A DNA stretch of 64,000 nucleotides from Escherichia coli (GTDB lineage Bacteria; Pseudomonadota; Gammaproteobacteria; Enterobacterales; Enterobacteriaceae): assembly GCA_005400705.1 (NCBI GenBank), contig GCA_005400705.1_4079.1. The stretch is one strand, 5' to 3'. Positions 2,947 through 63,939 of this stretch are shown in pieces. Position numbers and translations under genes: made by a program. The notes beneath the pieces are model-generated. The model saw nothing but the letters and a program-made list of their open reading frames with translations. It was not told where the DNA came from and did not search any database. The stretch's first letter is position 1. Each line of letters begins with the position of its first letter.

Positions 2947-3520
2947 AGAAATTGAAAGTAAATTAAAGTACTTCAAAGATATCAAACTTCTTTGGGAAAA
3001 GTATAAAGTTGATTACAATTTCAGTGATGATGACACTGTAAAAACAATTGAGATTAATATCAAAATCAAGTTCAAGAATAATAATTATGGTGAAGTAACC
3101 TTAAATCATACTGGTATATCACTCAAGGACTATGATGGTTCAACACTCGCATATTTTGACTTCACACCAGAACCAGGTGAAACACTACTTAGTGAGATAA
3201 ATTCCTATGACATGGAAGTGTTCGGCGGGAATCCGTTACTGTTCCGACTTTCTGAAGATTGGAGTGAAGAATACTACACTTACAAAGATGGTGTAGTACT
3301 TGACATTAATGGTGAAGTTGTGAATGACTTGGAAGAACGCTTGTTCCAAGAATTGTGTGTTTCAAATACTTCATATGCATACAATCATATCCTTGACATG
3401 TTTGATTTATATAGTAAAATAGATGCTGAAATGAATGCACATGGTATTCATTATCTTACAATCAACGACTATGCTCAACTTGAAACTGTAGTGAAAGCAT
3501 TGACTAAAGTACTGAAATAG
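2936..3520 (+). CDS. hypothetical protein (194 aa)
   Basis: ORF track. Confidence 0.5.
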   Translation: MDFKEIESKLKYFKDIKLLWEKYKVDYNFSDDDTVKTIEINIKIKFKNNNYGEVTLNHTGISLKDYDGSTLAYFDFTPEPGETLLSEINSYDMEVFGGNPLLFRLSEDWSEEYYTYKDGVVLDINGEVVNDLEERLFQELCVSNTSYAYNHILDMFDLYSKIDAEMNAHGIHYLTINDYAQLETVVKALTKVLK

Positions 3521-11096: not shown

Positions 11097-11626
11097 AAGA
11101 AACATGTGTATTAACGTTTGGTCGTATTAATCCTGTACATCGTGGACATGGTTTAGTTTTTGAAAAGGCCAAAACATTACAAGAACAGTACAATGCTGAT
11201 TTAAAAATATATCTAAGCACCAGTACTGACAATATAAAAAACCCACTCCCACCTGAACTAAAAATGTATTATACAGAGGGATTCTATCCTTCAGTGCAAG
11301 AGAACATCTACACAGAAGACAATCTGTTTGATATAATGAGAGAACTGGATGGAAAGTACTTAGATGTTCTTTTCATATGTGGTTCTGACCGTATTGATTC
11401 TTTTCAAAAAACTCTTGACATGTACAATGGTAAGTTGTATAATTTTTGTAGTATAAAAGCAATTCAGGCAGGTATTGACCGTAATGTAAGTCAATATAGC
11501 TCAACACAAATGCGTAACTTCGCAAAAAATGAAGATTTTGATAGTTTTCGTGAGTTTTTACCTGGAAATGACGAGGACTTAAAAATACAATTATTTGAAG
11601 ACGTTATAAAATACATGAGGAAATAA
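11093..11626 (+). CDS. HxGH-family nucleotidyltransferase, NMN/NaMN adenylyltransferase-like
   Basis: TFGRINPVHRGH (H/TxGH motif) and later SSTQMRN (ISSTxIR-like) typical of NadD/NMNAT-class enzymes; ATGA overlap with methyltransferase gene. Confidence 0.55.
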   Translation: MKETCVLTFGRINPVHRGHGLVFEKAKTLQEQYNADLKIYLSTSTDNIKNPLPPELKMYYTEGFYPSVQENIYTEDNLFDIMRELDGKYLDVLFICGSDRIDSFQKTLDMYNGKLYNFCSIKAIQAGIDRNVSQYSSTQMRNFAKNEDFDSFREFLPGNDEDLKIQLFEDVIKYMRK

Positions 11627-18126: not shown

Positions 18127-18390
18127 ATGAATATTAAAGATAGATTACAATTACTATACACTATTGAACAGGCTGCTTTTGAACTTGTTAATAAAATCTC
18201 CGAAGAACTTCCCAAAGGAACTATAGTTCGTGTAATTGAGAGGGATTATGAATCTGGAGAAATTGAAGAACTAGTACTAACCGTGAATAAAGTAACATAC
18301 TATGAATCTGAGTTGGCTATCCAATGTATATCGGAAGATGGTAAAATATACTATTATGACACTGGTGTAGATATAGAGGTAATAAAATGA
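18127..18390 (+). CDS. hypothetical small protein
   Basis: ATG 18127 directly after upstream stop; ORF-track start 18082 would overlap 44 nt. Confidence 0.45.
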   Translation: MNIKDRLQLLYTIEQAAFELVNKISEELPKGTIVRVIERDYESGEIEELVLTVNKVTYYESELAIQCISEDGKIYYYDTGVDIEVIK

Positions 18391-19529
18391 CCCTTTTACA
18401 AATATATGAAGATTTAATGCACTTATGTAATACAAACGATGCGTTTTTTTATGTGGATCATAAAAGTCCTGCTGGTGGTACGTATCGTGTATTCAGTTAT
18501 CGTCTAGCATCATACACTGATTTCATGCAACCAAATGCGTTGGAAACCCGTGGCTCTATGTGGGAAATTGATGAAGAAGGTGACATGATACGTTGTGCAG
18601 CACGTACAATGAAAAAGTTCTTCAATGCTTACGAGAATCCTGCTACAATGTTCCCTGCTAACACCACATGCGATGACATTGCGGTAGTGATGCCTAAGTT
18701 GGATGGTTCGATTATCAGTACTTATCGTGATAATGATGGTGAGATTCGTTGTAAATCACATACTGCATTGTATTCTGACCATGCGATTAACAGTACTCGA
18801 CTTATTAACGAGAACCAGAATTTGTACCAGTACATCGACGAAGCGGAACGTTTAGGTTACACAGTTAATATGGAGTATACAAGCCCAGAGTACCGAATTG
18901 TATTACCATATCAGGTAGAACAACTGTTTGTACTGAACGTTCGACATCGTGTGAGTGGTGAGTTGCTATGTGGTAAAGCACTACGTGATAAGTTTCCATG
19001 TCTTGCACAGTACAGTACTAATATGACTGGAAAAGATATTCATCACACTTTTCCGGTACGAAATACCTTCCGTGAAAGCGTGGAGGAAGTTCATAAAATG
19101 CTTGATATTGAGGGTTTTGTGTGCATCCTAAATAATGGGACAATGTGTAAAATAAAGACTGACTGGTACAGTTCATTACATCTTACAAAAGATAGTATTA
19201 TTATTGATTCTCATTTATATGAAGCCGTATTAAATGGTTCAAGTGATGATTTAAAACAATTGTTCAGTACTGATGAATATGCTATGCAAAAGATATTAAG
19301 AATGGAACAATTGGTATTTTCGTGCTATAATGCATTACAAGATGAAGTAGAAAGCTTCGTCAAGGAACACAAGCACTTGGAGCGAAAGGAATTCGCAATG
19401 AAGGTTCAGGAGTGTTTAACTAATGAACTGAATCGTCAGGGCTTGGCCTTTGCAATGTATAACAATAAGAAAGTTGATTACAAAGAGACTCTTATAAAAT
19501 ACATGAAAATTGTACTAAAGGATTTTTAG
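18387..19529 (+). CDS. rnlA: RNA ligase 1 (T4 gp63-like, tRNA repair)
   Basis: N-terminal region collinear with T4 Rnl1 as recalled (FFY...YR[IV]FSY...Y[ST]D...ALE.RG); similar length (380 aa); GAGGT before ATG. Confidence 0.9.
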   Translation: MTLLQIYEDLMHLCNTNDAFFYVDHKSPAGGTYRVFSYRLASYTDFMQPNALETRGSMWEIDEEGDMIRCAARTMKKFFNAYENPATMFPANTTCDDIAVVMPKLDGSIISTYRDNDGEIRCKSHTALYSDHAINSTRLINENQNLYQYIDEAERLGYTVNMEYTSPEYRIVLPYQVEQLFVLNVRHRVSGELLCGKALRDKFPCLAQYSTNMTGKDIHHTFPVRNTFRESVEEVHKMLDIEGFVCILNNGTMCKIKTDWYSSLHLTKDSIIIDSHLYEAVLNGSSDDLKQLFSTDEYAMQKILRMEQLVFSCYNALQDEVESFVKEHKHLERKEFAMKVQECLTNELNRQGLAFAMYNNKKVDYKETLIKYMKIVLKDF

Positions 19530-20625: not shown

Positions 20626-21558
20626 ATGCCAACTATTACACTAACAGTTGGATTACCTGGGTGTGGTAAAACCACATGGGCAGTTCAAGAAATTAAAAAT
20701 GCCAAATCCAAGACTATCAACATCAACCGTGATGATATTCGTGAATCTATGGCTGGGTCACATGATGCTTACAAATTCAACGATGCTAATGAGCAGTACG
20801 TAACTAATTTACAGTTCAGTGCAGCAAATTCAGCAGCAGAGAATGGTTGGAACATCATCATATCCGATACAAACCTTAAACAACATTTCCGTAATCTCTG
20901 GAAAGTATGGGCTAAAGATAATGGTTATGATTACAAAGAAAAGAACTTCTATGATGATTTTGTACCTAATGAAGACCGTGGTGCAGATGTTCATGAATTC
21001 TTTAAGATTAAAGAGTTCGTAAAACTTTGTAAGAAATATAACCTTCAGCGTGAGCGTTCAGTACAAGATAATATCATTGACACAATGGCAGATACGTACT
21101 ATTATAGTAAGGCATTGCACATTGGTTACTATGGTAATTCACGAGAAGCTGCTGTTATCGTTGATATTGACGGTACTCTTGCTCATAAATGGGGTCGTAA
21201 TCCTTACGATGAAAGTACTGTTCTTCAGGATACACCTGATGAAGAAGTTATTTTGTCTATTATCGCTGAAGCAGTTTTTCATAAACGCAAGATTATCGTC
21301 ATGAGTGGGCGTACTGAAGGGTGTCGTACTGACACCGAACAGTGGCTTAAGAATTGGGGTGTTCCTTACGATGCATTGTTTATGCGAGGCATCGATGATA
21401 AACGTCCTGATGATGTTGTTAAATTCGACCTGTACATGAAAAATGTGGTTAATCAATACGATGTTAAAAAGGTATATGATGACCGCGAAGCCGTGACGTT
21501 CATGTGGCGTAAGCTACTTGGTTTGAAGGTATTTCAAGTAGATTTTGGACGTTTTTGA
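20626..21558 (+). CDS. pseT: polynucleotide 5'-kinase / 3'-phosphatase
   Basis: P-loop GLPGCGKTT near N-terminus, NINRDD, and HAD-type VIVDIDGTLA phosphatase motif; collinear with T4 Pnk as recalled; AAGGAG Shine-Dalgarno. Confidence 0.9.
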   Translation: MPTITLTVGLPGCGKTTWAVQEIKNAKSKTININRDDIRESMAGSHDAYKFNDANEQYVTNLQFSAANSAAENGWNIIISDTNLKQHFRNLWKVWAKDNGYDYKEKNFYDDFVPNEDRGADVHEFFKIKEFVKLCKKYNLQRERSVQDNIIDTMADTYYYSKALHIGYYGNSREAAVIVDIDGTLAHKWGRNPYDESTVLQDTPDEEVILSIIAEAVFHKRKIIVMSGRTEGCRTDTEQWLKNWGVPYDALFMRGIDDKRPDDVVKFDLYMKNVVNQYDVKKVYDDREAVTFMWRKLLGLKVFQVDFGRF

Positions 21559-53315: not shown

Positions 53316-53903
53316 ATGGCATATAAAATAAGAGCAGACCTTAAGGCAATGCAACAAGTTACAGTTCAGGGTAAAAGTACTGGTCTTGGTGTATTAGGTA
53401 ATAATATGACTTATTACCCAACAAATTCAAATGGGGAATGTACATTCCCCTCTATTACCAAAGATGAAGTTAACTTTATTGTCAATGGATTACCACTTAC
53501 ACAATACGGAGAATTGTATGATGACGCTAGTCTAAATATTACTTCATCAGGCTATAGTCTTACATTTAATAGACAGATACCATCATTTATTGGTGGTTAT
53601 CTTTATAAATTTCCAGCAGTTTCTATTTTTGCTTCAACTGTTTCATCTGGAACACAAACACAATACGTATATGCAACGTTAGTTCTCGGTGAACCAATTT
53701 ATAAAATATCACCAACACAAATACAAGAATCTGAAATTATAATGTTTATTGGAACACTGACCGTTGGTACAAGTGGTATTACAAATATAAACATTAATAA
53801 AGTATCCAGATTTAGTACATATAGACCTAGTGTTACACAAAAAGGTTCTTCATTCCCAGTCAGTACTGGAAAACCATCAGAAACTGGTACAATTGGTTGG
53901 TAA
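53316..53903 (+). CDS. short paralog of tail-fibre-like family (195 aa)
   Basis: AAAGGA before ATG; C-terminus GSSFPVSTGKPSETGTIGW. Confidence 0.5.
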   Translation: MAYKIRADLKAMQQVTVQGKSTGLGVLGNNMTYYPTNSNGECTFPSITKDEVNFIVNGLPLTQYGELYDDASLNITSSGYSLTFNRQIPSFIGGYLYKFPAVSIFASTVSSGTQTQYVYATLVLGEPIYKISPTQIQESEIIMFIGTLTVGTSGITNININKVSRFSTYRPSVTQKGSSFPVSTGKPSETGTIGW

Positions 53904-53919
53904 ATTAAGGAAAAGAAAG

Positions 53920-56649
53920 ATGTCATCAAAACGAATTATAGGAAGTGCCGAGATCCTTGGGAACTTGGCAATTGGACAAAGGTACGCTATGCGTACTTTT
54001 AATGGAACCTCACCGAATGCCAATACTGGAATTGTTCAATATCCAATATATAAGCGTTCAGAAGTTCAAAGTATTTTAGATATGTTGCCTATATCACGTG
54101 TAGGAGAAATGGATTACTTACCATTAAACGTAAGTGGATCGTATGAAGGTGCTACACCTATGTCAAGTGACCAAGTAGTTCAGCCAACAATTATTGAAGA
54201 TGATGGAACCGCCGTTGTTCTGCGTAGCGGAACCAATGGTAGTACTAAAGGTTTTTATTATTCATTTATACGAGATCTCCGAAATATAACTATGATTTCA
54301 CAAGAAAGTGTTATTTCAACCAATTCAATGTATAAACCTTCAATTATGAGTAGTACTGAAAATATTAAGTATTTTATTGGCTCTAATGGTTATGAGATGC
54401 TTGGATGTTTAAGTACTGAAGATAATTATATTTTTACTATAACCAATGGCACATTTAACGAAATATCACATATTCATGCTAAAGTTCCAAGTACTTCTTT
54501 TGGTAATGATATGCCAATATATACACATATTGTTGGGACAAAGGTTTATATTTGGTGTAAAGATAAAAGTGTTTCTAATTTAGGATTAGCACTTTCAATT
54601 TATACAGTAGAGCTAAGTGATGTGAAAGCAAGCTCAATGGCATCATTAACAAAAGTTACTGGGTTATCAGGTCAAACTGTTCGAAACACAAGTTATTCTG
54701 CATCTAATAACATAAGAGTGTTCGATAAATTATATAGTGTTGGTACTAGCTCGGATTCATTATTCGAAGTTACATCACCAGTATCACGTGTAGAATTTTC
54801 AGACTATACAGACTTTAACATTCAAGCCAACGTTAGTCCTGATTTATCAAAAATACGTGTAACTTTATATCCAACACATCGAATGGTTACACCTTTGTAT
54901 ATTTCAACAGTTTATGGTACTGGAATAAGTTTTGTTTATAATATAAACTCAAAATCTATGTCACTAGATGGTAGTGCTCGTGCACCTGCAACTGTTTCAT
55001 ATAATAATGGATTTCAAGTTTCTAACCCATTTGAAATTAATATGGTCAACTTCACAGGGACAACTGCTGCTGGTGTATTAGGAAACGCAGGTGGTTTATG
55101 TCAAACTAAAGATGGTTTGGTATTTGCATCTAAATTTAGATGGAGTTCAACTGAATTTTATGGTCTACAACGATATAAGGTTAGTGGGACACCGTTTGAT
55201 TCATGGGTTGCCAGTACTAGAACCGCAAGTAACGTTATAAATGCAAACGTTTTACCAGTTTTTGGTAGTGCTGTTGGTGCAAACCTTTTAGGTGTACGTT
55301 TCATCGATAATAGAAAAATATTATTAGCATGTTCTGGTACGTATGATGATGTAACATATAATTATAATAATACTGTTTTTTCTGAAATAGGTTCACAACC
55401 AACATATCAATATAACTCAGTTCAAAATAATACTACATTAAATGGTTTTGCACCACAATCTAATCGTAAACAAATAGGCGATGATTTTACATACACTGCT
55501 ATGATTTCTCTTGTTGATACCGATGGTAGTGTTAGATGCTATGGAACATCATTCATTGAAGGTGTATATAAAACAAGTGGTGGATTATTAAACCCAGATA
55601 CTTTAGAATTTGATGAAACATATACAATAGAACCAACGGTATTAGAATCATTAAAACAAGATATTTTTGCTAATCTAGGAAACTCTGGCATTGTTGGTAC
55701 ACTATCTGGACAAATTGTATTATATTATGTACCTGATAATACTTTTTCTAAATCCATCGCAGTAGTTTCAGCATATAATCTTAACAATAACCAAGGTTAT
55801 GCAATCTATGCCGAAGTTGATGTTGTATTATCTGGAACTAACATAACTTCAGCTACATTGGTGAGTACTAGATATGAGACACTTAGTTCTGTTACAGGAA
55901 TTATTACTGAAGCATATATGAAACGTTGTACTGGTCTAACAGTTGCAAAATATTCAGGATTTGGTTACATTGGTGTTGATGCTGTTCATCAATTTTCACA
56001 ACCAGGTAATGCACAATTTAAGATGATGATAGCTAAAACAGTAGATGGTGTCATAACATCAAATCGTTTTTTATCATCTAGTTACATCCAACTTGGTGCA
56101 GCATATCAACATGGTGTTATTCCTGGTGTTGGTTTTGGATATTACAATTTTCAAGATTCTGACTATCAAACCAAATCTGTATTCAGCGTTTTTGGTACAA
56201 CATCTGCTGAAATGGATGGTTTAATTAGTGGAAATGGTAGCGTTAAAGAAAAGATTGTGGTAGTATCACAAGACGTTGCACAAGGATTCTCAGTGTACTT
56301 TACACGTGAAGTTCCGGTGTTTTTAGGTGGAATTTTCGACAGACTACCTATACAAAGTGTTGATTTAAGTACTGTAAAAAGTAACCCAGCTAATACTACG
56401 TTCTATTTGTATATACAAATGAACAGGAATACTAAGAAGGCGTCATATGTTATTAGTACTGAAACAATTGATGAATCTTTAACTAGCACTTACATTGGTA
56501 AGATAGTTACTGGAACTTCAGGAATAACTTCAATTGATACAGAAAAAGTAACTCGTTTTTTGACATATCGTCCAAGTACAACGAAACGTGGTTCAGCGAT
56601 ACCTGCCAGTACTGGTGTACCATCAGGTCCAGGTACACGTTGGAAATAA
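53920..56649 (+). CDS. tail-fibre-like / receptor-binding structural protein, paralog 2 (909 aa)
   Basis: AAGGA before ATG 53920 (ORF-track start 53830 overlaps upstream gene); DGTAVVLRSGTNGS and C-terminus GSAIPASTGVPSGPGT. Confidence 0.5.
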   Translation: MSSKRIIGSAEILGNLAIGQRYAMRTFNGTSPNANTGIVQYPIYKRSEVQSILDMLPISRVGEMDYLPLNVSGSYEGATPMSSDQVVQPTIIEDDGTAVVLRSGTNGSTKGFYYSFIRDLRNITMISQESVISTNSMYKPSIMSSTENIKYFIGSNGYEMLGCLSTEDNYIFTITNGTFNEISHIHAKVPSTSFGNDMPIYTHIVGTKVYIWCKDKSVSNLGLALSIYTVELSDVKASSMASLTKVTGLSGQTVRNTSYSASNNIRVFDKLYSVGTSSDSLFEVTSPVSRVEFSDYTDFNIQANVSPDLSKIRVTLYPTHRMVTPLYISTVYGTGISFVYNINSKSMSLDGSARAPATVSYNNGFQVSNPFEINMVNFTGTTAAGVLGNAGGLCQTKDGLVFASKFRWSSTEFYGLQRYKVSGTPFDSWVASTRTASNVINANVLPVFGSAVGANLLGVRFIDNRKILLACSGTYDDVTYNYNNTVFSEIGSQPTYQYNSVQNNTTLNGFAPQSNRKQIGDDFTYTAMISLVDTDGSVRCYGTSFIEGVYKTSGGLLNPDTLEFDETYTIEPTVLESLKQDIFANLGNSGIVGTLSGQIVLYYVPDNTFSKSIAVVSAYNLNNNQGYAIYAEVDVVLSGTNITSATLVSTRYETLSSVTGIITEAYMKRCTGLTVAKYSGFGYIGVDAVHQFSQPGNAQFKMMIAKTVDGVITSNRFLSSSYIQLGAAYQHGVIPGVGFGYYNFQDSDYQTKSVFSVFGTTSAEMDGLISGNGSVKEKIVVVSQDVAQGFSVYFTREVPVFLGGIFDRLPIQSVDLSTVKSNPANTTFYLYIQMNRNTKKASYVISTETIDESLTSTYIGKIVTGTSGITSIDTEKVTRFLTYRPSTTKRGSAIPASTGVPSGPGTRWK

Positions 56650-56655
56650 ATTTAA

Positions 56656-56684
56656 AGCTCGTCTATTGACGGGCTTTTCTTTTA
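56656..56684 (+). terminator. rho-independent terminator
   Basis: stem AGCTCGTC...GACGGGCT (one G-U pair) followed by TTTTCTTTT. Confidence 0.65.
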
Positions 56685-56688
56685 TGTG

Positions 56689-56694
56689 TATAAT
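56689..56694 (+). promoter_or_regulatory. -10-like TATAAT
   Basis: GTGTATAATTG upstream of gene at 56717. Confidence 0.3.
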
Positions 56695-56716: not shown

Positions 56717-57283
56717 ATGGTCAAATCTTTATTACCGCCACCAAAACGTCACAAAATCAAAGAAATGAAAGAACAACGTACATTAAAGATGTACATCAAT
56801 TTAGTTAAGTTACTGTGTAAAAGTCCATCGCTCAAAGCAGAGTTTAAAACTGATGATGACCGCAAAGCACTAATTGAGATGAAGTATATGCTCAGTAAAA
56901 TGTCCTTTTACAAATTTGTAAAAGAATACGCATCTGACCCATTTAGTCCTCGTTGGAGAGCCAAACCAAGAGAGTATTTTTACGGTGGTTCATATACGGA
57001 TATCATTCAAGACACAGTGATGGGAGTTGAATTTGAAATCGATTATGATCCGAATGGTGTGGAAAGCTGGCCGATTGAGAAACGTTTACCAAGTGAAGAA
57101 GAAATTTATGTTTATGCAAGAAAACTTTCAAATTTCAGTTCAAGAATTACTCTAGGCAATTTAGATTCATTTATTATTTTCTATACACGTGTTGGTGTAG
57201 ATAAAATGGTAACTAAACTCAATGAACTTTCATTACAACAAAAACAGATTAATGCATACAAAGACATTACTGATTTATACTAA
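56717..57283 (+). CDS. hypothetical protein, first of three tandem paralogs
   Basis: GGAGGAAATTATG; shared block KSPSLKAEFKTDDDRKALIEMKYMLSK. Confidence 0.55.
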   Translation: MVKSLLPPPKRHKIKEMKEQRTLKMYINLVKLLCKSPSLKAEFKTDDDRKALIEMKYMLSKMSFYKFVKEYASDPFSPRWRAKPREYFYGGSYTDIIQDTVMGVEFEIDYDPNGVESWPIEKRLPSEEEIYVYARKLSNFSSRITLGNLDSFIIFYTRVGVDKMVTKLNELSLQQKQINAYKDITDLY

Positions 57284-57289
57284 TGAGGA

Positions 57290-57811
57290 ATGGATATGTT
57301 TTTTGGATCAGTTGGAAAACAAAACAGTACTTTAATTTGGCATGAAATTATCTTTAAAATTATATCTAAAAGCTACTCACTAAAGGATATTATTACCACA
57401 GATAATGATAGACGTATCCTGTTAGATGCAAAATATAAATTGAGCAAACACCCTTTACTTTCTTTAATCATTGATTACGTTAATGATTATGAATCTAGTC
57501 GTTGGAAGTGGGAAGACGGCGGTTTATTTCGTGGAAAAACATTCTACGGTGCGGAACGATATGTTTTCAGTGATACATCAAATGGCGTTAAGTTTGCTAT
57601 TAGAAACTTTAACTCCAAAGAAAATGATTATCTTGAAAGTGGAGTGAAAGTATATATCGATAATAATAGCAATGTACTAACATATGACGAATCACTAATT
57701 ATGTTACAAATAATGCGTGGAGTTGAAGGTGTAAGAAACAACCTTACTAAATTGAAAATCCAGCAAAATGATATACATAATAGACAGAAAATTAAGGGTT
57801 TATATAAATGA
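57290..57811 (+). CDS. hypothetical protein, second of three tandem paralogs
   Basis: shared block KSYSLKDIITTDNDRRILLDAKYKLSK; start 57290 or 57296. Confidence 0.5.
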   Translation: MDMFFGSVGKQNSTLIWHEIIFKIISKSYSLKDIITTDNDRRILLDAKYKLSKHPLLSLIIDYVNDYESSRWKWEDGGLFRGKTFYGAERYVFSDTSNGVKFAIRNFNSKENDYLESGVKVYIDNNSNVLTYDESLIMLQIMRGVEGVRNNLTKLKIQQNDIHNRQKIKGLYK

Positions 57812-58317
57812 TTTCATTTTTCAAAAAGAAACAAAAAGTTGATGAAACCGGATTAGAATCGTTTCTGTGGACTCTTATCATCAAAAAAAGCCCATTGATG
57901 AAAGAATATGCTATCAATGATGCTAATAGAAAAACTATCATTGAATACAAATATGAATTATCTAAATGTGATCCAATTGTTTATCACTTTGCGAAGTACT
58001 GTTCAAAAAATTTATCGGATATCACAATCGACCACGAGTCAGTCCCGATGAGTTTTCCTTATGGTGATTGGGTAGATACTTTTGATATTTTTGATGGGTC
58101 AAATGGTTTCAGTTTCTTTTACTCGTCAAATAAAGCAAATGTTCGTATTAAAACAGACATAGGTTGGACACAGCATAGCTCAAATAAAGAAGATTATAAT
58201 TTATTAGCTGACGTATACCGAAGTGTGAAGAATTCAAAGGATATTGATGAAAGAATTAAAAAGCAAAATCGTATATCTTTATCACTTGAAACATACAAGT
58301 CAAAGTATGGTGGTTAA
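57808..58317 (+). CDS. hypothetical protein, third of three tandem paralogs
   Basis: shared block KKSPLMKEYAINDANRKTIIEYKYELSK; ATGA overlap. Confidence 0.5.
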   Translation: MISFFKKKQKVDETGLESFLWTLIIKKSPLMKEYAINDANRKTIIEYKYELSKCDPIVYHFAKYCSKNLSDITIDHESVPMSFPYGDWVDTFDIFDGSNGFSFFYSSNKANVRIKTDIGWTQHSSNKEDYNLLADVYRSVKNSKDIDERIKKQNRISLSLETYKSKYGG

Positions 58318-58319
58318 CT

Positions 58320-58721
58320 ATGACTACAGTTGATGATATCTATAGCACTATACGCAATATGAGTACAGATAGAAAAGTATTTGGCGATAAAGAAAAATCT
58401 AAGTGTTATGGTATTGATTCTTTTGATATAATTTCTTATGAGTACAATACAAGTGGAAATAGTTCACTGAATATCGTCTGTCCTCGTGACCCAGAAAATA
58501 ATTTTATGTATGTTGAAATTAATAATGATGGAATGTTTTTTACAAAAGTTTTCAAAGGTGGAATTAATTACGAACCTATTGAATGTATGAATGAAGAAAC
58601 TTTCTTTCAAGAAGATACAATTATCAATTTAGGTTTTAGTTTTGATGATTATAAAACATTAGAACATGACTTTAATCGTTATTATAATGGTTTCTTAAAG
58701 GAGTTAACAATTTATCTATGA
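58320..58721 (+). CDS. hypothetical protein (133 aa)
   Basis: ORF track. Confidence 0.5.
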   Translation: MTTVDDIYSTIRNMSTDRKVFGDKEKSKCYGIDSFDIISYEYNTSGNSSLNIVCPRDPENNFMYVEINNDGMFFTKVFKGGINYEPIECMNEETFFQEDTIINLGFSFDDYKTLEHDFNRYYNGFLKELTIYL

Positions 58722-59950
58722 ATAACCAATATATTGAACAAACAATAGTGAAACACTTGGCTGGGTCACAAGCCTACGGAACCAGTACACCTGAAAGTGA
58801 TACTGATTATCGTGGTATTTTTCTTGCTAATAAAGAATTTATTCTTACACCCTTCTATAAGGTCAAAGAGGTAGCTGATAAAAGCGAAGAAGATACTAAA
58901 TTCTATGAGTTGAATCAGTATTTAAAATTATACACTGAAGCTAACCCTAATATTCTTGAATCACTTTGGGTTGAACCTGAACACATTGTTGAAAGTACTG
59001 AAATTTATGACTATCTTCGTTCATTTAACCAAAAACTTCTTAGTTCCAAGATTGCATTTTCATATACTGGTTATGCATATAATCAGATTAAGCGTATGAC
59101 AAATCATCACGGTTGGATGGATAAAGAGCGTATTGCTGAAAAACGATTAAATGAGATTTTAGAAGAACACCCTGTCGATGAGGTTCTTGCGTGGATGTAT
59201 GATTCATTCCCACAGTATCTTGTTGAACGTTTAGATACATCCAACTTACATCCATTTAATGCTAAAAAGATTGATTTTGAAAAATATATGCGTGATACAT
59301 CATTGCAGTTAGTTTCGAAAAATCCATTAAAGCAATATCATTTCGTAAGATTAGTGCATAACTACACTACTGAAAAAATTCTTGATCGTGATTTCAATTT
59401 ATTGAATTTTAATAATGGTTATGAACTAATTCATTACGGAGAAAACATTTTTGCGATTGTTAAGAATCCTAATGAAAGCACTATTAACCATGATGGTTCA
59501 TTGCGTTATTTTTCAAAAGAACGTAGTACTGAAGAGTTGAAAACCAAACCAGAACTAATTGTAAAATTTAACGAAAAAGAATATCAGGAGAATAGTGAGA
59601 ATAGGAAAAGTTATCATAAATGGAAAGAAAATCGTAATGCCAAACGTGCTATTTTAGAATCACAACACGGATACGATTGTAAACATGCTATGCACACAAT
59701 CCGACTTTTGAATAGTGCAGAAGAAGCATTACAAAGTGGAATTATTCAAGTTAAACGACCAGATGCACAAATGTTGATGGATATTCGTAATGGTAAATGG
59801 AAGTATGAAGAAGTATTAGAATATTTCGATGATAAAGTACAATACATTCGTGATGTTCTATATAAGAAATCAGTACTTCCTAAAAAACCAAACATCAAGT
59901 TAGCATCAAAAATTATCATTGATATTAGAGAAATGCAATGGTATAAGTAA
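58718..59950 (+). CDS. Pol-beta-superfamily nucleotidyltransferase-domain protein (410 aa)
   Basis: N-terminal GSQAYGTSTPESDTDYRGIF = G[SG]x9-13Dh[DE]h nucleotidyltransferase signature; ATGA overlap. Confidence 0.55.
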   Translation: MNNQYIEQTIVKHLAGSQAYGTSTPESDTDYRGIFLANKEFILTPFYKVKEVADKSEEDTKFYELNQYLKLYTEANPNILESLWVEPEHIVESTEIYDYLRSFNQKLLSSKIAFSYTGYAYNQIKRMTNHHGWMDKERIAEKRLNEILEEHPVDEVLAWMYDSFPQYLVERLDTSNLHPFNAKKIDFEKYMRDTSLQLVSKNPLKQYHFVRLVHNYTTEKILDRDFNLLNFNNGYELIHYGENIFAIVKNPNESTINHDGSLRYFSKERSTEELKTKPELIVKFNEKEYQENSENRKSYHKWKENRNAKRAILESQHGYDCKHAMHTIRLLNSAEEALQSGIIQVKRPDAQMLMDIRNGKWKYEEVLEYFDDKVQYIRDVLYKKSVLPKKPNIKLASKIIIDIREMQWYK

Positions 59951-60027
59951 CATACATGAGTATAATGGTACTAAAAATGCCATTATACTCGATAAATACT
60001 CAATATAAATTAACGCAAGGATTAAGT

Positions 60028-60156
60028 ATGGCACAACAAATTTTCACAGATATCCACACTACCGGAGTTATTAAATTTCAAAATAATTTTTCAGGTGCAA
60101 CTGGTGTAGACATTAAAAATGATGGTTTTAACATTGTCAGTACTCGGATCTATTGA
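60028..60156 (+). CDS. short ORF, possibly the N-terminal part of a frameshifted gene continuing at 60119
   Basis: AAGGA 7 nt upstream of ATG 60028; TATAAATT late-promoter-like site at 60005; ORF-track variant starts at 59956. Confidence 0.3.
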   Translation: MAQQIFTDIHTTGVIKFQNNFSGATGVDIKNDGFNIVSTRIY

Positions 60157-60655
60157 TGGTGAAGATAGTTCTCTTAGTGATTCTGTGATTGCATCATTCG
60201 GAACTAATAAAAACAGTTCTTTTATTATATCTGGATGGACTGGAATGACTGATTCTGAAAATAATGTTAAGATAAAAGCTAAATCTACTAACGAGAATCA
60301 TGAAACAGAATGGGTAACATTATATGATAGTGCAAGTAATAAGTTATATAATGTACTAAGTTCTAATAACATTTTAATTAATCCACTGTCGGGTAATGCT
60401 GTTTTTAATATTAATTTATCTGATAGAAATACTACTATTTCGATTGGTGCGGCTCCTACTGAAGTTTATTCAATTACCATCCTATTAACACAACAAACAG
60501 GTTCAAACCTAGTTAATTGGGGTTCTAATGTTAAATGGTCATATAACAGACCAGTTGTTCTTTCTTATGAAATTGGTGAAAAAGATATTATTTCATTAGA
60601 AACATATGATAAAGGAGTTACATGGTACGGTGCATTAATTAGAGCAGGAGTATGA
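60119..60655 (+). CDS. probable virion structural protein (Ser/Asn/Thr-rich)
   Basis: ORF track; start overlaps upstream ORF by 38 nt in a different frame. Confidence 0.45.
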   Translation: MMVLTLSVLGSIDGEDSSLSDSVIASFGTNKNSSFIISGWTGMTDSENNVKIKAKSTNENHETEWVTLYDSASNKLYNVLSSNNILINPLSGNAVFNINLSDRNTTISIGAAPTEVYSITILLTQQTGSNLVNWGSNVKWSYNRPVVLSYEIGEKDIISLETYDKGVTWYGALIRAGV

Positions 60656-60656
60656 T

Positions 60657-63446
60657 ATGTTAAACAATAATATTGATAATATTGTACAACTTCTTTATGG
60701 GCATCACAAATTTATTGAAAGAAATACTGGTGATACAATAGACCCAACAGTACAACATTATGTGGTGAACAATCAGGGTGTTTTGGCGAACAACCGTCAT
60801 TTTATTAACTATTCTGCAATGGAAGGTCAACCAAACGGTGACGGAACAACAGAAGGTCAAAGTCTATTAATTTTAGGATACATTTATGCGTATCTGGCAA
60901 CAAATGATCCAATGTTTTTAGATAAGGCAAAGTGGTATTGGGACGCATATCATCAGTACTTTTATGCTGGACGTGAATTACCAGATCCACCTACACCACT
61001 ACAATGTAACTGGATAGTTAATGCCAAAGAACCTATATTGGCTAACTGGCCTTTAGCTGATGATGGCTGGCCCACACATGGTGGTTTCAAGGGTGTAGAA
61101 TTTACATTTACAAATGGACAATGTAAAATACCACATGGTGCACCTTATTATGGTCAGTTCTTGGATAAAGTAACATTTGCATTCAAAGGTGCTTTAGCAT
61201 GGAACCAAATAAATGCGTCAGTAAAAGCATTATTACCAGATGGTAGTGTTGATTGGGATACACCAGGTGAACAATATGATGTTGACTGGATTATCGATTT
61301 CATGGGTAGAAAAATCGACTGGGATGGTAATATTTTAGCAGAAGGTTTTGACGAATCTGAAAAAGGAACTGTTCAATTAAAGAATACAACAATTAATGGT
61401 GTATATAAATTAAATTTTGCAAATCGTCAACCAGTAGAATATGGTGGTGTGATAATTCAACGAAATGAAATGCAACACAACCGCCCTCTTCATGTTCCAA
61501 TTGATTTGGAATTTGCTGATAACGCATCAGATGCAGAATTATGGTTTAGTGATGCTTCTTATTTGTTATATAAAATAACAAAAGAAAGAAAACATTATTT
61601 GGGTTGGAAATGTTCACTACTAACGTGTTATGCTTATGGTGATATTGACTCCAGAGATAAATTTTTCAGACAAAGTACAATTGTAACCACACCATTCACT
61701 GATGGTATTTCCTATGAATATTTTTATCCTAGTGATGCTATTGCTAAGTTTGGTAGAAATTCTCTAGGATATATTACTATCAGGCAAGACCAAAGTGCAC
61801 AAAGTACTATGGAACAACAAGCTATTTGGTTCAGGGTCAATGCTGATTCTAAATTACTTGTAGACTATGGTGGTGTATGTGATGATGGTAAGCCGTTATC
61901 ATTTAAACCAGTACTGGAATTGTCAAAAACAAAAAATGACCATGATGTTGTTCGTTATCGTTGTGGCTTACCGGAAAGTAAAGACCAAAATATCACACAT
62001 TCATTAACACCTTTAAGTGCATTTGTTAGAGAAAAGAAAGCAGATGGTTCCCCTTATATAATTGCTGATAGTAGAATTGTTGTTCCTTATGGTGCAGCTA
62101 CATCCGAAATGATATATAGTACTGATATATTAGTTACACGCCGAGATACCATTAATCAGTTAGTTTGTGGTGAAGATGATGGTGCTGTTATTGGATTTTG
62201 GCTATTAGCAACAAATAAGTCTGAAGTTAAATCTTTTACATATCGTTCATATGAAGATGATTACAATATAAGAATTGTAGATGATAATGGTTGGAGATGG
62301 TGGTGGATGATTCCTGCAACACACGGGGAATGGACTACAATCACACTAAGTTCCGATACATTACGTTTATCTGGGTATCAGCCAAATCATCCAAGTTCTG
62401 ACCCAAGACCAGATGCACCAGTTTATAGTGAGCTAGAAGATATTACTATTTTACCTGATACAACCCCAGTAGATGGTGTTGCTGCAATAATTGATTGGTA
62501 TTGTATTAATGACATTCCAGAATTATATACGGATGCTGATGGTGATGACTATACTATGACATTTTCAATAACAATTGCAGGTGAATCACCATATACTGCA
62601 CAGTTAGGGGATTGTGTAATCAAAGATTATTTGTTAAACTCATTGCATTACACACCAGGAACAATACCATTTTCTAACATCACTGACCCGTATGCGAACC
62701 AGTATTCAGGATGGCGTGGTTTACCGTATCCAGGTTATCAATATCCTGTGATATATTGTTTTAAAGACCAGCCAGTAGATAACACACGCTTAGGAAACAT
62801 GTTAAGCTTTATGAAAGATTCCCAAACATGGTTTACTCAACAATTCGGTACTGTTGGTCCGTGTGCACAAGCATATGTTTGGAACCGCTGGGATAACTTA
62901 AAGTATGGTGAACCAGATACATTTACTATGCTACATTGGGGTGATCAAGCATGGAGTGGGTATGAACCACGTGCGTTCTTTGGGGCTGCCAGAGCATGGC
63001 AAGAACTCGCAGAGAGAGGAATTGAACCACCAGCAGATCTTGTTGAATTTTGTGAGAATTGGATTCACTTTTTAATTCAATTTCAAAAAGATAATGATGG
63101 TCGTTCACCAACAATCTTCAATAAAGATGGCACAGTTGAAGGTCCAGATTGGGACTTTACGGGTCATATGTGTGGGTTGTGGTTAGCTGGGGCTTGTGCT
63201 GCTGGGTTGGCTGGATGTAAAATAGAAGGTCTAACAACACTCGCTGATAACTTAGTTCTCGAACTTCAAAAGAATTATGTTATTGTAAATCCAGGTTCAC
63301 CAATGAATGGTTCATGGAGTCCAGCAGTTAGAGAAGGTACTGATAATGGTATGTTTTTTGGTTTCTGGGCAGGTGAGAATATGCGTGGATTGGGATTATA
63401 CTCAATGTACCGCTTAAACACACCAAATCGTTTCCGTGATTTATAA
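60657..63446 (+). CDS. large Trp-rich protein (929 aa); possible carbohydrate-active or tail-associated protein
   Basis: GCAGGAG before ATG; C-terminal third is Trp/Gly/aromatic-rich in a way reminiscent of glycoside-hydrolase toroid domains; weak inference. Confidence 0.5.
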   Translation: MLNNNIDNIVQLLYGHHKFIERNTGDTIDPTVQHYVVNNQGVLANNRHFINYSAMEGQPNGDGTTEGQSLLILGYIYAYLATNDPMFLDKAKWYWDAYHQYFYAGRELPDPPTPLQCNWIVNAKEPILANWPLADDGWPTHGGFKGVEFTFTNGQCKIPHGAPYYGQFLDKVTFAFKGALAWNQINASVKALLPDGSVDWDTPGEQYDVDWIIDFMGRKIDWDGNILAEGFDESEKGTVQLKNTTINGVYKLNFANRQPVEYGGVIIQRNEMQHNRPLHVPIDLEFADNASDAELWFSDASYLLYKITKERKHYLGWKCSLLTCYAYGDIDSRDKFFRQSTIVTTPFTDGISYEYFYPSDAIAKFGRNSLGYITIRQDQSAQSTMEQQAIWFRVNADSKLLVDYGGVCDDGKPLSFKPVLELSKTKNDHDVVRYRCGLPESKDQNITHSLTPLSAFVREKKADGSPYIIADSRIVVPYGAATSEMIYSTDILVTRRDTINQLVCGEDDGAVIGFWLLATNKSEVKSFTYRSYEDDYNIRIVDDNGWRWWWMIPATHGEWTTITLSSDTLRLSGYQPNHPSSDPRPDAPVYSELEDITILPDTTPVDGVAAIIDWYCINDIPELYTDADGDDYTMTFSITIAGESPYTAQLGDCVIKDYLLNSLHYTPGTIPFSNITDPYANQYSGWRGLPYPGYQYPVIYCFKDQPVDNTRLGNMLSFMKDSQTWFTQQFGTVGPCAQAYVWNRWDNLKYGEPDTFTMLHWGDQAWSGYEPRAFFGAARAWQELAERGIEPPADLVEFCENWIHFLIQFQKDNDGRSPTIFNKDGTVEGPDWDFTGHMCGLWLAGACAAGLAGCKIEGLTTLADNLVLELQKNYVIVNPGSPMNGSWSPAVREGTDNGMFFGFWAGENMRGLGLYSMYRLNTPNRFRDL

Positions 63447-63477
63447 CTTGACATAGAAAAAGTAATTATGTATAATT

Positions 63478-63507
63478 AGAGAACTTCATATGGAGTTCTC
63501 TTTTTTA
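63478..63507 (+). terminator. rho-independent terminator
   Basis: stem AGAGAACT...AGTTCTCT followed by TTTTTT. Confidence 0.75.
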
Positions 63508-63519
63508 TAAGGTGATAAA

Positions 63520-63939
63520 ATGTTAAATGAACGTATTAAAAATGCACTACATGTATTGAACCAAGAAGTTAATTCTATCGATAAAAGTACTGACCGTTAT
63601 AAAGTAATGCATGAAATCAAACAAGAATTGGAATCTATTAATAAGGGAGAATGGTGGTATCTTCAGCCCGAATATCAAACTCGTGAATTAAACGATGTTG
63701 AAAAAGAAATTGTCAAATTCATCACTACTCGTTACTGTGATACATCAGAGAATGATGTATCAGCGAACTTCAATCTTACTAAATTGGAAGTAGAAGAAAA
63801 ATTCAATTTTGATTGGCTTGATTGGCTTGAAATGGTGATGGAACTAGAAGAAAAATTCAATGTTGAAGTTGATGAAAAGTTCGAGAATAATGAAACTAAG
63901 CTGTATGAACTAGCAGAACATATTCAAAACATGTTGTAA
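63520..63939 (+). CDS. hypothetical acidic protein (139 aa)
   Basis: ORF track; contains near-duplicated EEKFNFDW / EEKFNVEVDEKFE segments. Confidence 0.5.
   Translation: MLNERIKNALHVLNQEVNSIDKSTDRYKVMHEIKQELESINKGEWWYLQPEYQTRELNDVEKEIVKFITTRYCDTSENDVSANFNLTKLEVEEKFNFDWLDWLEMVMELEEKFNVEVDEKFENNETKLYELAEHIQNML

Follow-up and report, generated by a model that had tools for sequence, protein, structure and literature searches.

We analysed a 64-kb stretch of Escherichia coli DNA (64,000 nucleotides of assembly GCA_005400705.1, contig GCA_005400705.1_4079.1; hereafter, the window), concentrating on the nucleotidyltransferase (NTase) gene at 58718..59950. Judging from sequence comparison, its product almost certainly belongs to the RlaP family (RNA-ligase-associated Pol-beta, PF10127) as a long form, and on balance we favour, with considerable room for doubt, the full statement that this RlaP member gives nuclease-damaged tRNA back its lost nucleotides ahead of ligation. 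Around the gene, 4.1 kb of DNA are 99.5% identical to Escherichia phage 121Q (Asteriusvirus, a jumbo coliphage of 348.5 kb), and the window derives from a phage of this genus; between the protein and its PBECO4 orthologue, identity is 100%. In RefSeq NC_025447 the gene is 121Q gene 506, product 'nucleotidyltransferase', a label that recurs in several further Asteriusvirus records; hence the gene and its general class were already on record. As an annotated member of a defined family, for which predictions in jumbo phages have been published, it adds no new concept.

58718..59950, + strand: RlaP-family nucleotidyltransferase gene (open reading frame, PF10127, phrog_388, 100% identity to PBECO4, NC_025447 annotation)

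Assignment to the RlaP family

The open reading frame (ORF) encodes 410 amino acids (aa) and begins with an ATG that shares letters with the stop codon of the preceding 133-aa ORF (ATGA overlap). Residues 16-35 (nt 58763-58822) form the motif peptide GSQAYGTSTPESDTDYRGIF, containing G16-S17 and D28-x-D30. PHROG 388 ('nucleotidyltransferase') matches the protein over its full length (E=3e-76), homologues at E<=1e-5 are numerous in a large protein collection (n = 844), and tblastn yields matches in 690 phage records. Together with the PF10127 match described below, these data exclude a chance reading frame, and the initial reading of a real 410-aa ORF with a G[SG]...DxD motif is borne out.

RlaP was reportedly named by Burroughs and Aravind after its linkage to RNA ligases. 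The Pfam model of the family scores 59.2 bits against the NTase, well over the curated cut-off of 23 (E=6e-16); the NCBIfam search of the protein gave no meaningful match. As the Pfam model reaches the N-terminal half only, the rest of the protein was checked for likeness to RlaP. In a tblastn search against plasmids, bacterial relatives match the NTase with an N-terminal piece and a separate C-terminal one. One such relative, from Deinococcus gobiensis plasmid P2, lies within a Hen1-RlaP-RlaP-Pnkp operon, the classical bacterial RNA-repair setting, and another is a 253-aa RlaP from a Bacillus thuringiensis plasmid; PF10127 covers both end to end (E=6e-42 and E=2e-21, respectively). When a profile of the NTase family (43 sequences) was compared by hhalign with these proteins, the probability was 99.3% (E=1e-20) for the Deinococcus protein and 99.8% (E=1e-27) for the Bacillus one. 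The aligned columns comprise NTase residues ~7-131 and then ~310/322-405 (12-131 and 322-405 with the Deinococcus protein), the middle being skipped, and the helical domain at the C terminus is thus homologous to that of RlaP. Pfam searches with the isolated C-terminal and middle fragments gave no match.

The specificity of the enzyme, described as unknown in the original prediction, is therefore less obscure than was stated: the protein falls in PF10127, its C-terminal domain is homologous to those of RlaPs from RNA-repair operons, and an activity has been published for the family.

We also considered a class II CCA-adding enzyme. This identity was rejected, as Pfam does not detect the PolyA_pol head domain (PF01743; class II CCA-adding enzyme/poly(A) polymerase) in the NTase, and a CCA-adding enzyme is encoded by a gene of its own in the phage (121Q gene 539).

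Domain architecture and conserved residues

The protein consists of two domains separated by a long insertion.

58718..59110, + strand: N-terminal Pol-beta catalytic domain, residues 1-131 (Pfam match 13-131, conservation, AlphaFold2 model)
58763-58768 (G16-S17), 58799-58801 (D28), 58805-58807 (D30), 58892-58894 (D59), + strand: catalytic codons
59111..59632, + strand: insertion of ~175 residues (132-305; hhalign skip, alignment gaps, secondary structure)
59633..59947, + strand: C-terminal helical (HEPN/KNTase_C-like) domain with K322, H326, R329, E336, R347, D349, R357 and G359

Across 12 diverse phage and bacterial RlaPs, G16, G21, S27, D28, D30, L83, Q123, K322 and R329 are invariant, and S17, D59, E81 and G341 are conserved in at least 90% of the sequences; the catalytic positions G16, S17, D28, D30 and D59 are likewise conserved in the 43 close homologues. 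Because of its conservation across the 12 diverse RlaPs, we assign D59 as the third catalytic carboxylate, the acidic residue that had still been sought. Conservation thus yields the complete Pol-beta signature (the G-S turn, D-x-D and a third Asp), which, with the PF10127 match, upholds the proposed Pol-beta type.

The remaining ~330 residues had been said to contain no obvious motif, which is wrong, since the 43 close homologues share a strongly conserved C-terminal block: W302-K-x2-R306-N-x2-R310, D320-x-K322-H-A-M-H326-x2-R329-L-L, E336, R347-P-D349 and R357-x-G359. Invariant among these homologues are W302, R306, N307, R310, E314, D320 and K322, as well as H326, R329, E336, R347, D349, R357 and G359.

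The AlphaFold2 model built with the family alignment (mean pLDDT 91.9, pTM 0.82) has its beta-alpha-beta NTase core at residues 1-~110; next come a long helix and a helical segment (~112-200), then a beta-rich subdomain (~205-285), and at the end the C-terminal domain of six helices (286-409). In the core, strands are modelled at 6-15, 30-37, 51-54 and 60-64, and a helix at 16-20. The model terminates in a long helix (393-409); in the crystal structure of PfRlaP, the terminal helix packs back onto the NTase domain (bioRxiv 10.64898/2025.12.29.696909). Predicted viral structures match the model at E<=0.001 in 28 cases, and most of the named ones are labelled 'nucleotidyltransferase'.

The insertion contains the helical segment (~135-200), the beta-rich subdomain (~205-285) and a helix bearing W302-K-x2-R306-N. 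In both the 43- and the 12-sequence alignments, the helical segment is restricted to jumbo-phage versions, while the beta part is common to the PHROG 388 proteins of ~350 aa and to long bacterial forms, such as those of Hymenobacter (364 aa, with a short RlaP as neighbour) and of Deferribacter (338 aa, encoded 2.6 kb from RtcB). The insertion matches neither Pfam models nor PDB sequences. Searches of PDB sequences with the single sequence, the 43-sequence profile and the middle fragment were likewise empty, the PDB copy containing no RlaP structure.

Compared with bacterial RlaPs (PfRlaP and PaRlaP of Pseudomonas RtcB operons, Deinococcus gobiensis P2), the window NTase similarly has an RNA ligase and a Pnkp in the same genome. 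It differs in length (410 aa against ~250), with ~175 residues inserted between the domains, in being encoded outside a ligase/kinase operon, and in that the Pfam model aligns to the N-terminal half only. Closer in layout is NrdC.11 of T4-type phages, for which the RB14 orthologue is homologous to the NTase over the full length (hhalign probability 97.8%, E=1e-12, 274 columns): an insertion interrupts its middle at the corresponding position, with residues there weakly aligned to those of the NTase, and it shares the C-terminal D-x-K...R block and a PF10127 match over the N-terminal half only; it is also encoded apart from rnlA and pseT. Unlike the NTase, NrdC.11 is 336 aa long (~26% identity) and lacks both the helical insert at ~135-200 and the W-K-x2-R-N motif. 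The PHROG 388 proteins of Vequintavirinae (CR8/rV5-like), KLEP7, Vibrio and environmental T4-like phages share the same invariant residues at 31-47% identity; however, they are ~350 aa long, lack the 65-residue helical insert and occur in other neighbourhoods (with a CCA-adding enzyme or with UvsX-gp32-UvsW).

The structure and the alignments also bear on two alternatives outside RNA repair. The NTase could be an enzyme of the minimal-NTase/HEPN or HalB type, catalysing protein AMPylation, small-molecule modification or de novo synthesis of short oligonucleotides, e.g. against Hailong or MNT-HEPN defence. This we regard as very unlikely. The structures of kanamycin nucleotidyltransferase, MNT-HEPN and Hailong HalB do match the model, but weakly (Foldseek E>=0.02, TM 0.2-0.3) and over a fold common to the superfamily, whereas sequence profiles place the NTase specifically in RlaP; there is no match to it in PADLOC, and protein is not labelled by bacterial RlaP (bioRxiv 10.64898/2025.12.29.696909). 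Moreover, no R-x4-6-H motif of HEPN is conserved, the only R-x6-H (R310...H317) having a variable H317. The MNT-HEPN toxin-antitoxin type was rejected on the same grounds from the 43-homologue alignment: the HEPN-like fold is present and the conserved R-x4-6-H is absent.

According to the second alternative, among those raised initially, the enzyme would be cGAS/DncV-like (CD-NTase) or OAS-like and would make or mimic nucleotide second messengers. Only the generic G[SG]...DxD motif speaks for it. No PADLOC model matches the NTase, the CD-NTase/CdnD structures 7to3 and 7ljl are reached only at Foldseek E=1-3 (TM ~0.1), and the C-terminal domain, a helical bundle of HEPN-like fold, is homologous to the RlaP one and not of the PAP/OAS1 type; we therefore consider such an activity extremely improbable, and the cGAS/CD-NTase/OAS part of the original prediction falls.

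RNA-repair genes and the proposed role

Candidate partners of the NTase are encoded in the same phage.

18387..19529, + strand: T4 Rnl1-type RNA ligase (PF09511, E=9e-16; PF20819, E=7e-17; 121Q gene 438, annotated as RNA ligase), ~39 kb upstream of the NTase gene
20626..21558, + strand: T4-type polynucleotide kinase-phosphatase, Pnkp (PF25109, E=3e-40, and a P-loop kinase domain; 121Q gene 443, polynucleotide kinase)

The two genes lie 1.1 kb apart and form a complete T4-style pair for healing and sealing of tRNA; they are the presumed repair partners of the NTase. Elsewhere in 121Q, the stretches covered, which do not include positions 300-348 kb, contain the CCA-adding enzyme (gene 539), a metallophosphoesterase and seven annotated tRNA genes. 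Every component of a T4-style pathway for tRNA repair is present, at scattered places in the genome.

According to Iyer et al. (2021, PMC7824862), no other repair NTase is as prevalent in jumbo phages as RlaP, whose distribution parallels the one of RNA ligases and which is predicted to restore nucleotides lost to nucleases such as RloC, ahead of ligation. The Pseudomonas enzymes PfRlaP and PaRlaP add one or two NMP or dNMP to an RNA 3'-OH, prefer Mn2+, are inactive on DNA and protein, favour the 5' half of cleaved tRNA and raise the aminoacylation of repaired tRNA short of one nucleotide (bioRxiv 10.64898/2025.12.29.696909). RNA 3'-end modification, one of several candidate functions listed for the gene, agrees with this activity, bacterial members extending the RNA 3'-OH by one or two NMP. 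In the same study, T4 NrdC.11 falls in a separate sequence cluster with its function given as unknown; we found no functional work on NrdC.11 in the literature.

From the biochemistry of the family and the gene content of the phage, we infer tRNA as the substrate, and likewise the number of nucleotides added, the metal, the timing of expression and the biological role. D28, D30 and D59 would hold two divalent metals, probably Mn2+, and G16-S17 would bind the triphosphate of the incoming NTP. The conserved basic face that K322, R329, R347 and R357 form on the C-terminal helical domain may hold the RNA 3' end in the inter-domain cleft, probably with help from the inserted beta subdomain, so as to allow addition of one or two untemplated nucleotides to the RNA 3'-OH. 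During infection, nucleotides that RloC-type anticodon nucleases of the host remove from tRNAs would be put back in this way, and the phage Pnkp and Rnl1 would then heal and reseal the restored tRNA into a working molecule.

If this role is true, the NTase gives the phage an answer to host nucleases that trim tRNA besides cutting it, damage which plain ligation cannot reverse. The counter-nuclease idea was proposed in 2016 and 2021, with biochemical support from bacterial enzymes in 2025; what retains interest are the long phage forms, T4 NrdC.11 included, and the meaning of the 175-residue insertion and of the varied neighbourhoods.

Weighing of the tRNA-repair role and neighbourhoods of the relatives

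Several observations weigh against the tRNA-repair role or against its simple transfer from bacterial enzymes. The PF10127 alignment covers NTase residues 13-131 only (model positions 24-144 of 249), and the C-terminal homology becomes visible only in the profile-profile comparison (hhalign) with bacterial RlaPs. The ~175-residue insertion, without known counterpart, could alter the substrate. The published activity was reported for bacterial RlaPs, not for phage members (bioRxiv 10.64898/2025.12.29.696909). The NTase gene is neither in an operon with an RNA ligase system (RtcB, Rnl, Pnkp/Hen1) nor next to one: the Rnl1 and Pnkp genes are not adjoining, being located 37-40 kb upstream, and hence the operon association that gave the family its name is absent here. 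Furthermore, no tRNA gene was found within 10 kb of the NTase homologue in any of the 80 viral loci surveyed, and the commonest neighbourhood among these loci, considered next, is a DNA-recombination setting rather than an RNA-repair one.

For the survey of neighbourhoods, 80 IMG/VR loci were fetched with the family alignment, 75 of them informative. The NTase homologue directly follows a RecA/UvsX-like gene in 46 of the 75 (median gap 103 bp); 43 loci have gp32 upstream, and 34 have UvsW downstream. The order is gp32 - UvsX/RecA - NTase - two small ORFs - UvsW (loci L026-L090, e.g. L026, L027 and L030), and it is the chief finding that sits awkwardly with tRNA repair. The position in the recombination module may be inherited synteny in one broad clade, the NTases being 40-100% identical to each other.

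A rival possibility is that the NTase works on nucleic-acid 3' ends in phage DNA replication or recombination (RNA primers, R-loop RNA or DNA ends). Besides the module position, this is consistent with the efficient use of dATP on RNA 3' ends by bacterial RlaP (bioRxiv 10.64898/2025.12.29.696909) and with one Asteriusvirus genome paper, which places the protein among DNA-repair genes (PMC11895373). However, DNA 3' ends are not used by bacterial RlaPs (bioRxiv 10.64898/2025.12.29.696909), RecA, UvsY and UvsW of Asteriusvirus are encoded elsewhere (121Q genes 7-10), the module position could reflect the shared synteny of one large clade, and both the catalytic and the RNA-binding domains are homologous to those of RlaPs from RNA-repair operons. 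We judge this possibility to be quite unlikely.

A second group of loci points back to tRNA. A class II CCA-adding enzyme is encoded 9-2726 bp upstream on the same strand in 11 of the 80 IMG/VR loci (L025, L044, L045, L047, L053, L064, L071, L074, L080, L082 and L088). The linkage recurs in annotated phages, namely KLEP7 (L002, directly adjacent), CR8 (L003, ~2 kb) and Vibrio phage 496E54-1 (L004, 0.5 kb), and it supports a tRNA-related role. In KLEP7, the neighbours also comprise the Pth2 peptidyl-tRNA hydrolase and a metallophosphoesterase, the CCA enzyme being annotated as two adjacent ORFs; in CR8, a HisRS-like gene is near the NTase homologue.

The same linkage suggests an alternative within tRNA metabolism, namely that the NTase acts at the tRNA 3' (acceptor) end with the CCA-adding enzyme, rebuilding ends trimmed past CCA or tagging phage or host tRNAs. 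The close upstream CCA-adding enzyme in KLEP7, CR8, Vibrio 496E54-1 and the 11 IMG/VR loci, the nearby Pth2 and HisRS-like genes, and the labelling of full-length tRNA-sized RNA by bacterial RlaP (bioRxiv 10.64898/2025.12.29.696909) all agree with it. Yet the CCA enzyme of Asteriusvirus (121Q gene 539) is 16 kb off, a minority of loci show the linkage, which may be due to shared ancestry, and the cleaved anticodon-loop end is preferred to the acceptor end by bacterial RlaP in vitro (bioRxiv 10.64898/2025.12.29.696909). We therefore hold action at the acceptor end to be unlikely, and retain restoration of anticodon-nuclease damage as the preferred role.

A further, doubtful possibility is that long-form phage RlaPs with the beta subdomain (and, in jumbo phages, the helical insert) differ in specificity from the bacterial enzymes. 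They might restore RloC-lost nucleotides in a manner specific to tRNA shape and coordinated with the CCA-adding enzyme; or they might extend RNA 3' ends (primers or R-loop RNA) in recombination-dependent replication, the latter being suggested by the gene order gp32-UvsX-NTase-UvsW that most of the environmental relatives have.

The remaining neighbourhoods include 14 loci with a Rak2-like arrangement of a 939-aa ORF, a paralogue array and the NTase (L011-L024). The array is upstream of the NTase in 14 of 14 (43 copies); a second paralogue family (~162 aa) occurs downstream in 13 of them (30 copies), and relatives of the 939-aa protein (phrog_3573) occur upstream in 13 (24 copies, often two each). 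Tandem RlaPs are seen in bacteria: on Deinococcus gobiensis plasmid P2 (L093), the order is Hen1 - RlaP of 304 aa - RlaP of 264 aa - Pnkp, and on a Hymenobacter plasmid (L096) a short RlaP of 260 aa is followed by the 364-aa long form with the phage-type beta insertion.

Transcription context and neighbouring genes

The features surrounding the NTase gene are as follows.

56654..56694, + strand: terminator-like hairpin (56654-56677, then a T-run) overlapping the sigma-70-type promoter TTGACG-17-TATAAT (56666-56694)
56717-57283, 57290-57811, 57808-58317, + strand: three tandem paralogous genes (phrog_18641 twice, phrog_7868 once)
58320..58721, + strand: 133-aa ORF (phrog_22376), not paralogous to the three upstream genes
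60119-60655: PHROG 'tail fiber protein' gene, downstream of the NTase gene
60657-63446: PHROG 'tail protein' gene, downstream of the NTase gene
63448..63501, + strand: next strong sigma-70-type promoter, TTGACA-17-TATAAT (12/12), and a hairpin with a T-run (63478-63501)

The early-type -10 reported at 56689 proved to be genuine: TATAAT at 56689-56694 belongs to TTGACG-17-TATAAT, which matches 11 of 12 positions, and an AGGAGG ribosome-binding site stands 7 nt ahead of the ATG at 56717. TTGAC-N18-TATAAT occurs three times in the window (56654-56694, 63448-63501 and also 11415-11443), where 0.2 occurrences would be expected; all three are on the coding strand. Terminator-like hairpins are joined to two of the promoters, the -35 being inside the hairpin in one and the hairpin following the -10 in the other; these two elements look like terminator/promoter punctuation around a 6.8-kb unit. 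The element at 56654..56694 is the probable start of the transcription unit holding the NTase gene, and that at 63448..63501 its probable end. In T4-like phages, host-type (sigma-70) promoters are early promoters, and by analogy with T4 the NTase unit may be expressed early; no Asteriusvirus transcriptome was found in the literature.

The three tandem upstream paralogues were recognized correctly: the first pair is linked by BLASTP at E=4e-16, and the third is more weakly related (E=3e-4 over 43 aa) and backed by PHROG cross-matches between phrog_18641 and phrog_7868. Pfam gave no match for this array of ~170-190-aa proteins. Further upstream, at 53830-56649, there is a gene for a 939-aa protein (phrog_3573) without a Pfam match; 121Q genes 499 and 501 are similar in size.

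Whether the gene stands apart from a late structural operon, as had been claimed, is not demonstrated by the sequence. No terminator-like site was found between the NTase stop codon (59950) and the tail-fibre genes, and up to 63448-63501 there are only two weak 5-pair hairpins, inside the tail genes (60536-60553 and 60784-60799); hence the NTase may share a transcript with the genes at 60119-63446. The original prediction is thus partly supported: its superfamily, promoter and paralogues stand, while its statements on specificity, motif, second messengers and operon do not.

We dismissed the idea of a late promoter of T4 type, TATAAATA, between the NTase gene and the tail-fibre genes, as the match there is only 7/8 and the motif is depleted in the window: the octamer occurs twice, against 12.9 +/- 3.8 expected, with at least two copies in 100 of 100 shuffles. 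This 7/8 version, TATAAATT, lies in that interval, ~16 nt ahead of the ATG at 60028.

In several (at least six) Asteriusviruses, nucleotide similarity stops at the end of the NTase gene or at most 90 bp past it (59950-60041; query positions 3351-3442 of 4101). Thus, the tail-fibre cassette (60119-63446) seems exchangeable and the NTase part of a conserved upstream block, and the sequence gives a hint of a module boundary just 3' of the NTase gene.

Directly past the 12/12 promoter, at 63520-63939, a 139-aa ORF is weakly similar to acyl carrier proteins (phrog_5934, E=8e-7; Pfam PP-binding_2, 18.3 bits, under the cut-off of 32). In the 64-kb window, no tRNA genes were found, and Rfam at gathering thresholds gave nothing. 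GC skew is above zero in all 2-kb bins of the window, and the 121Q genes annotated within the corresponding stretches (200-251 kb) are all on the + strand except two short ones, genes 471 and 472.

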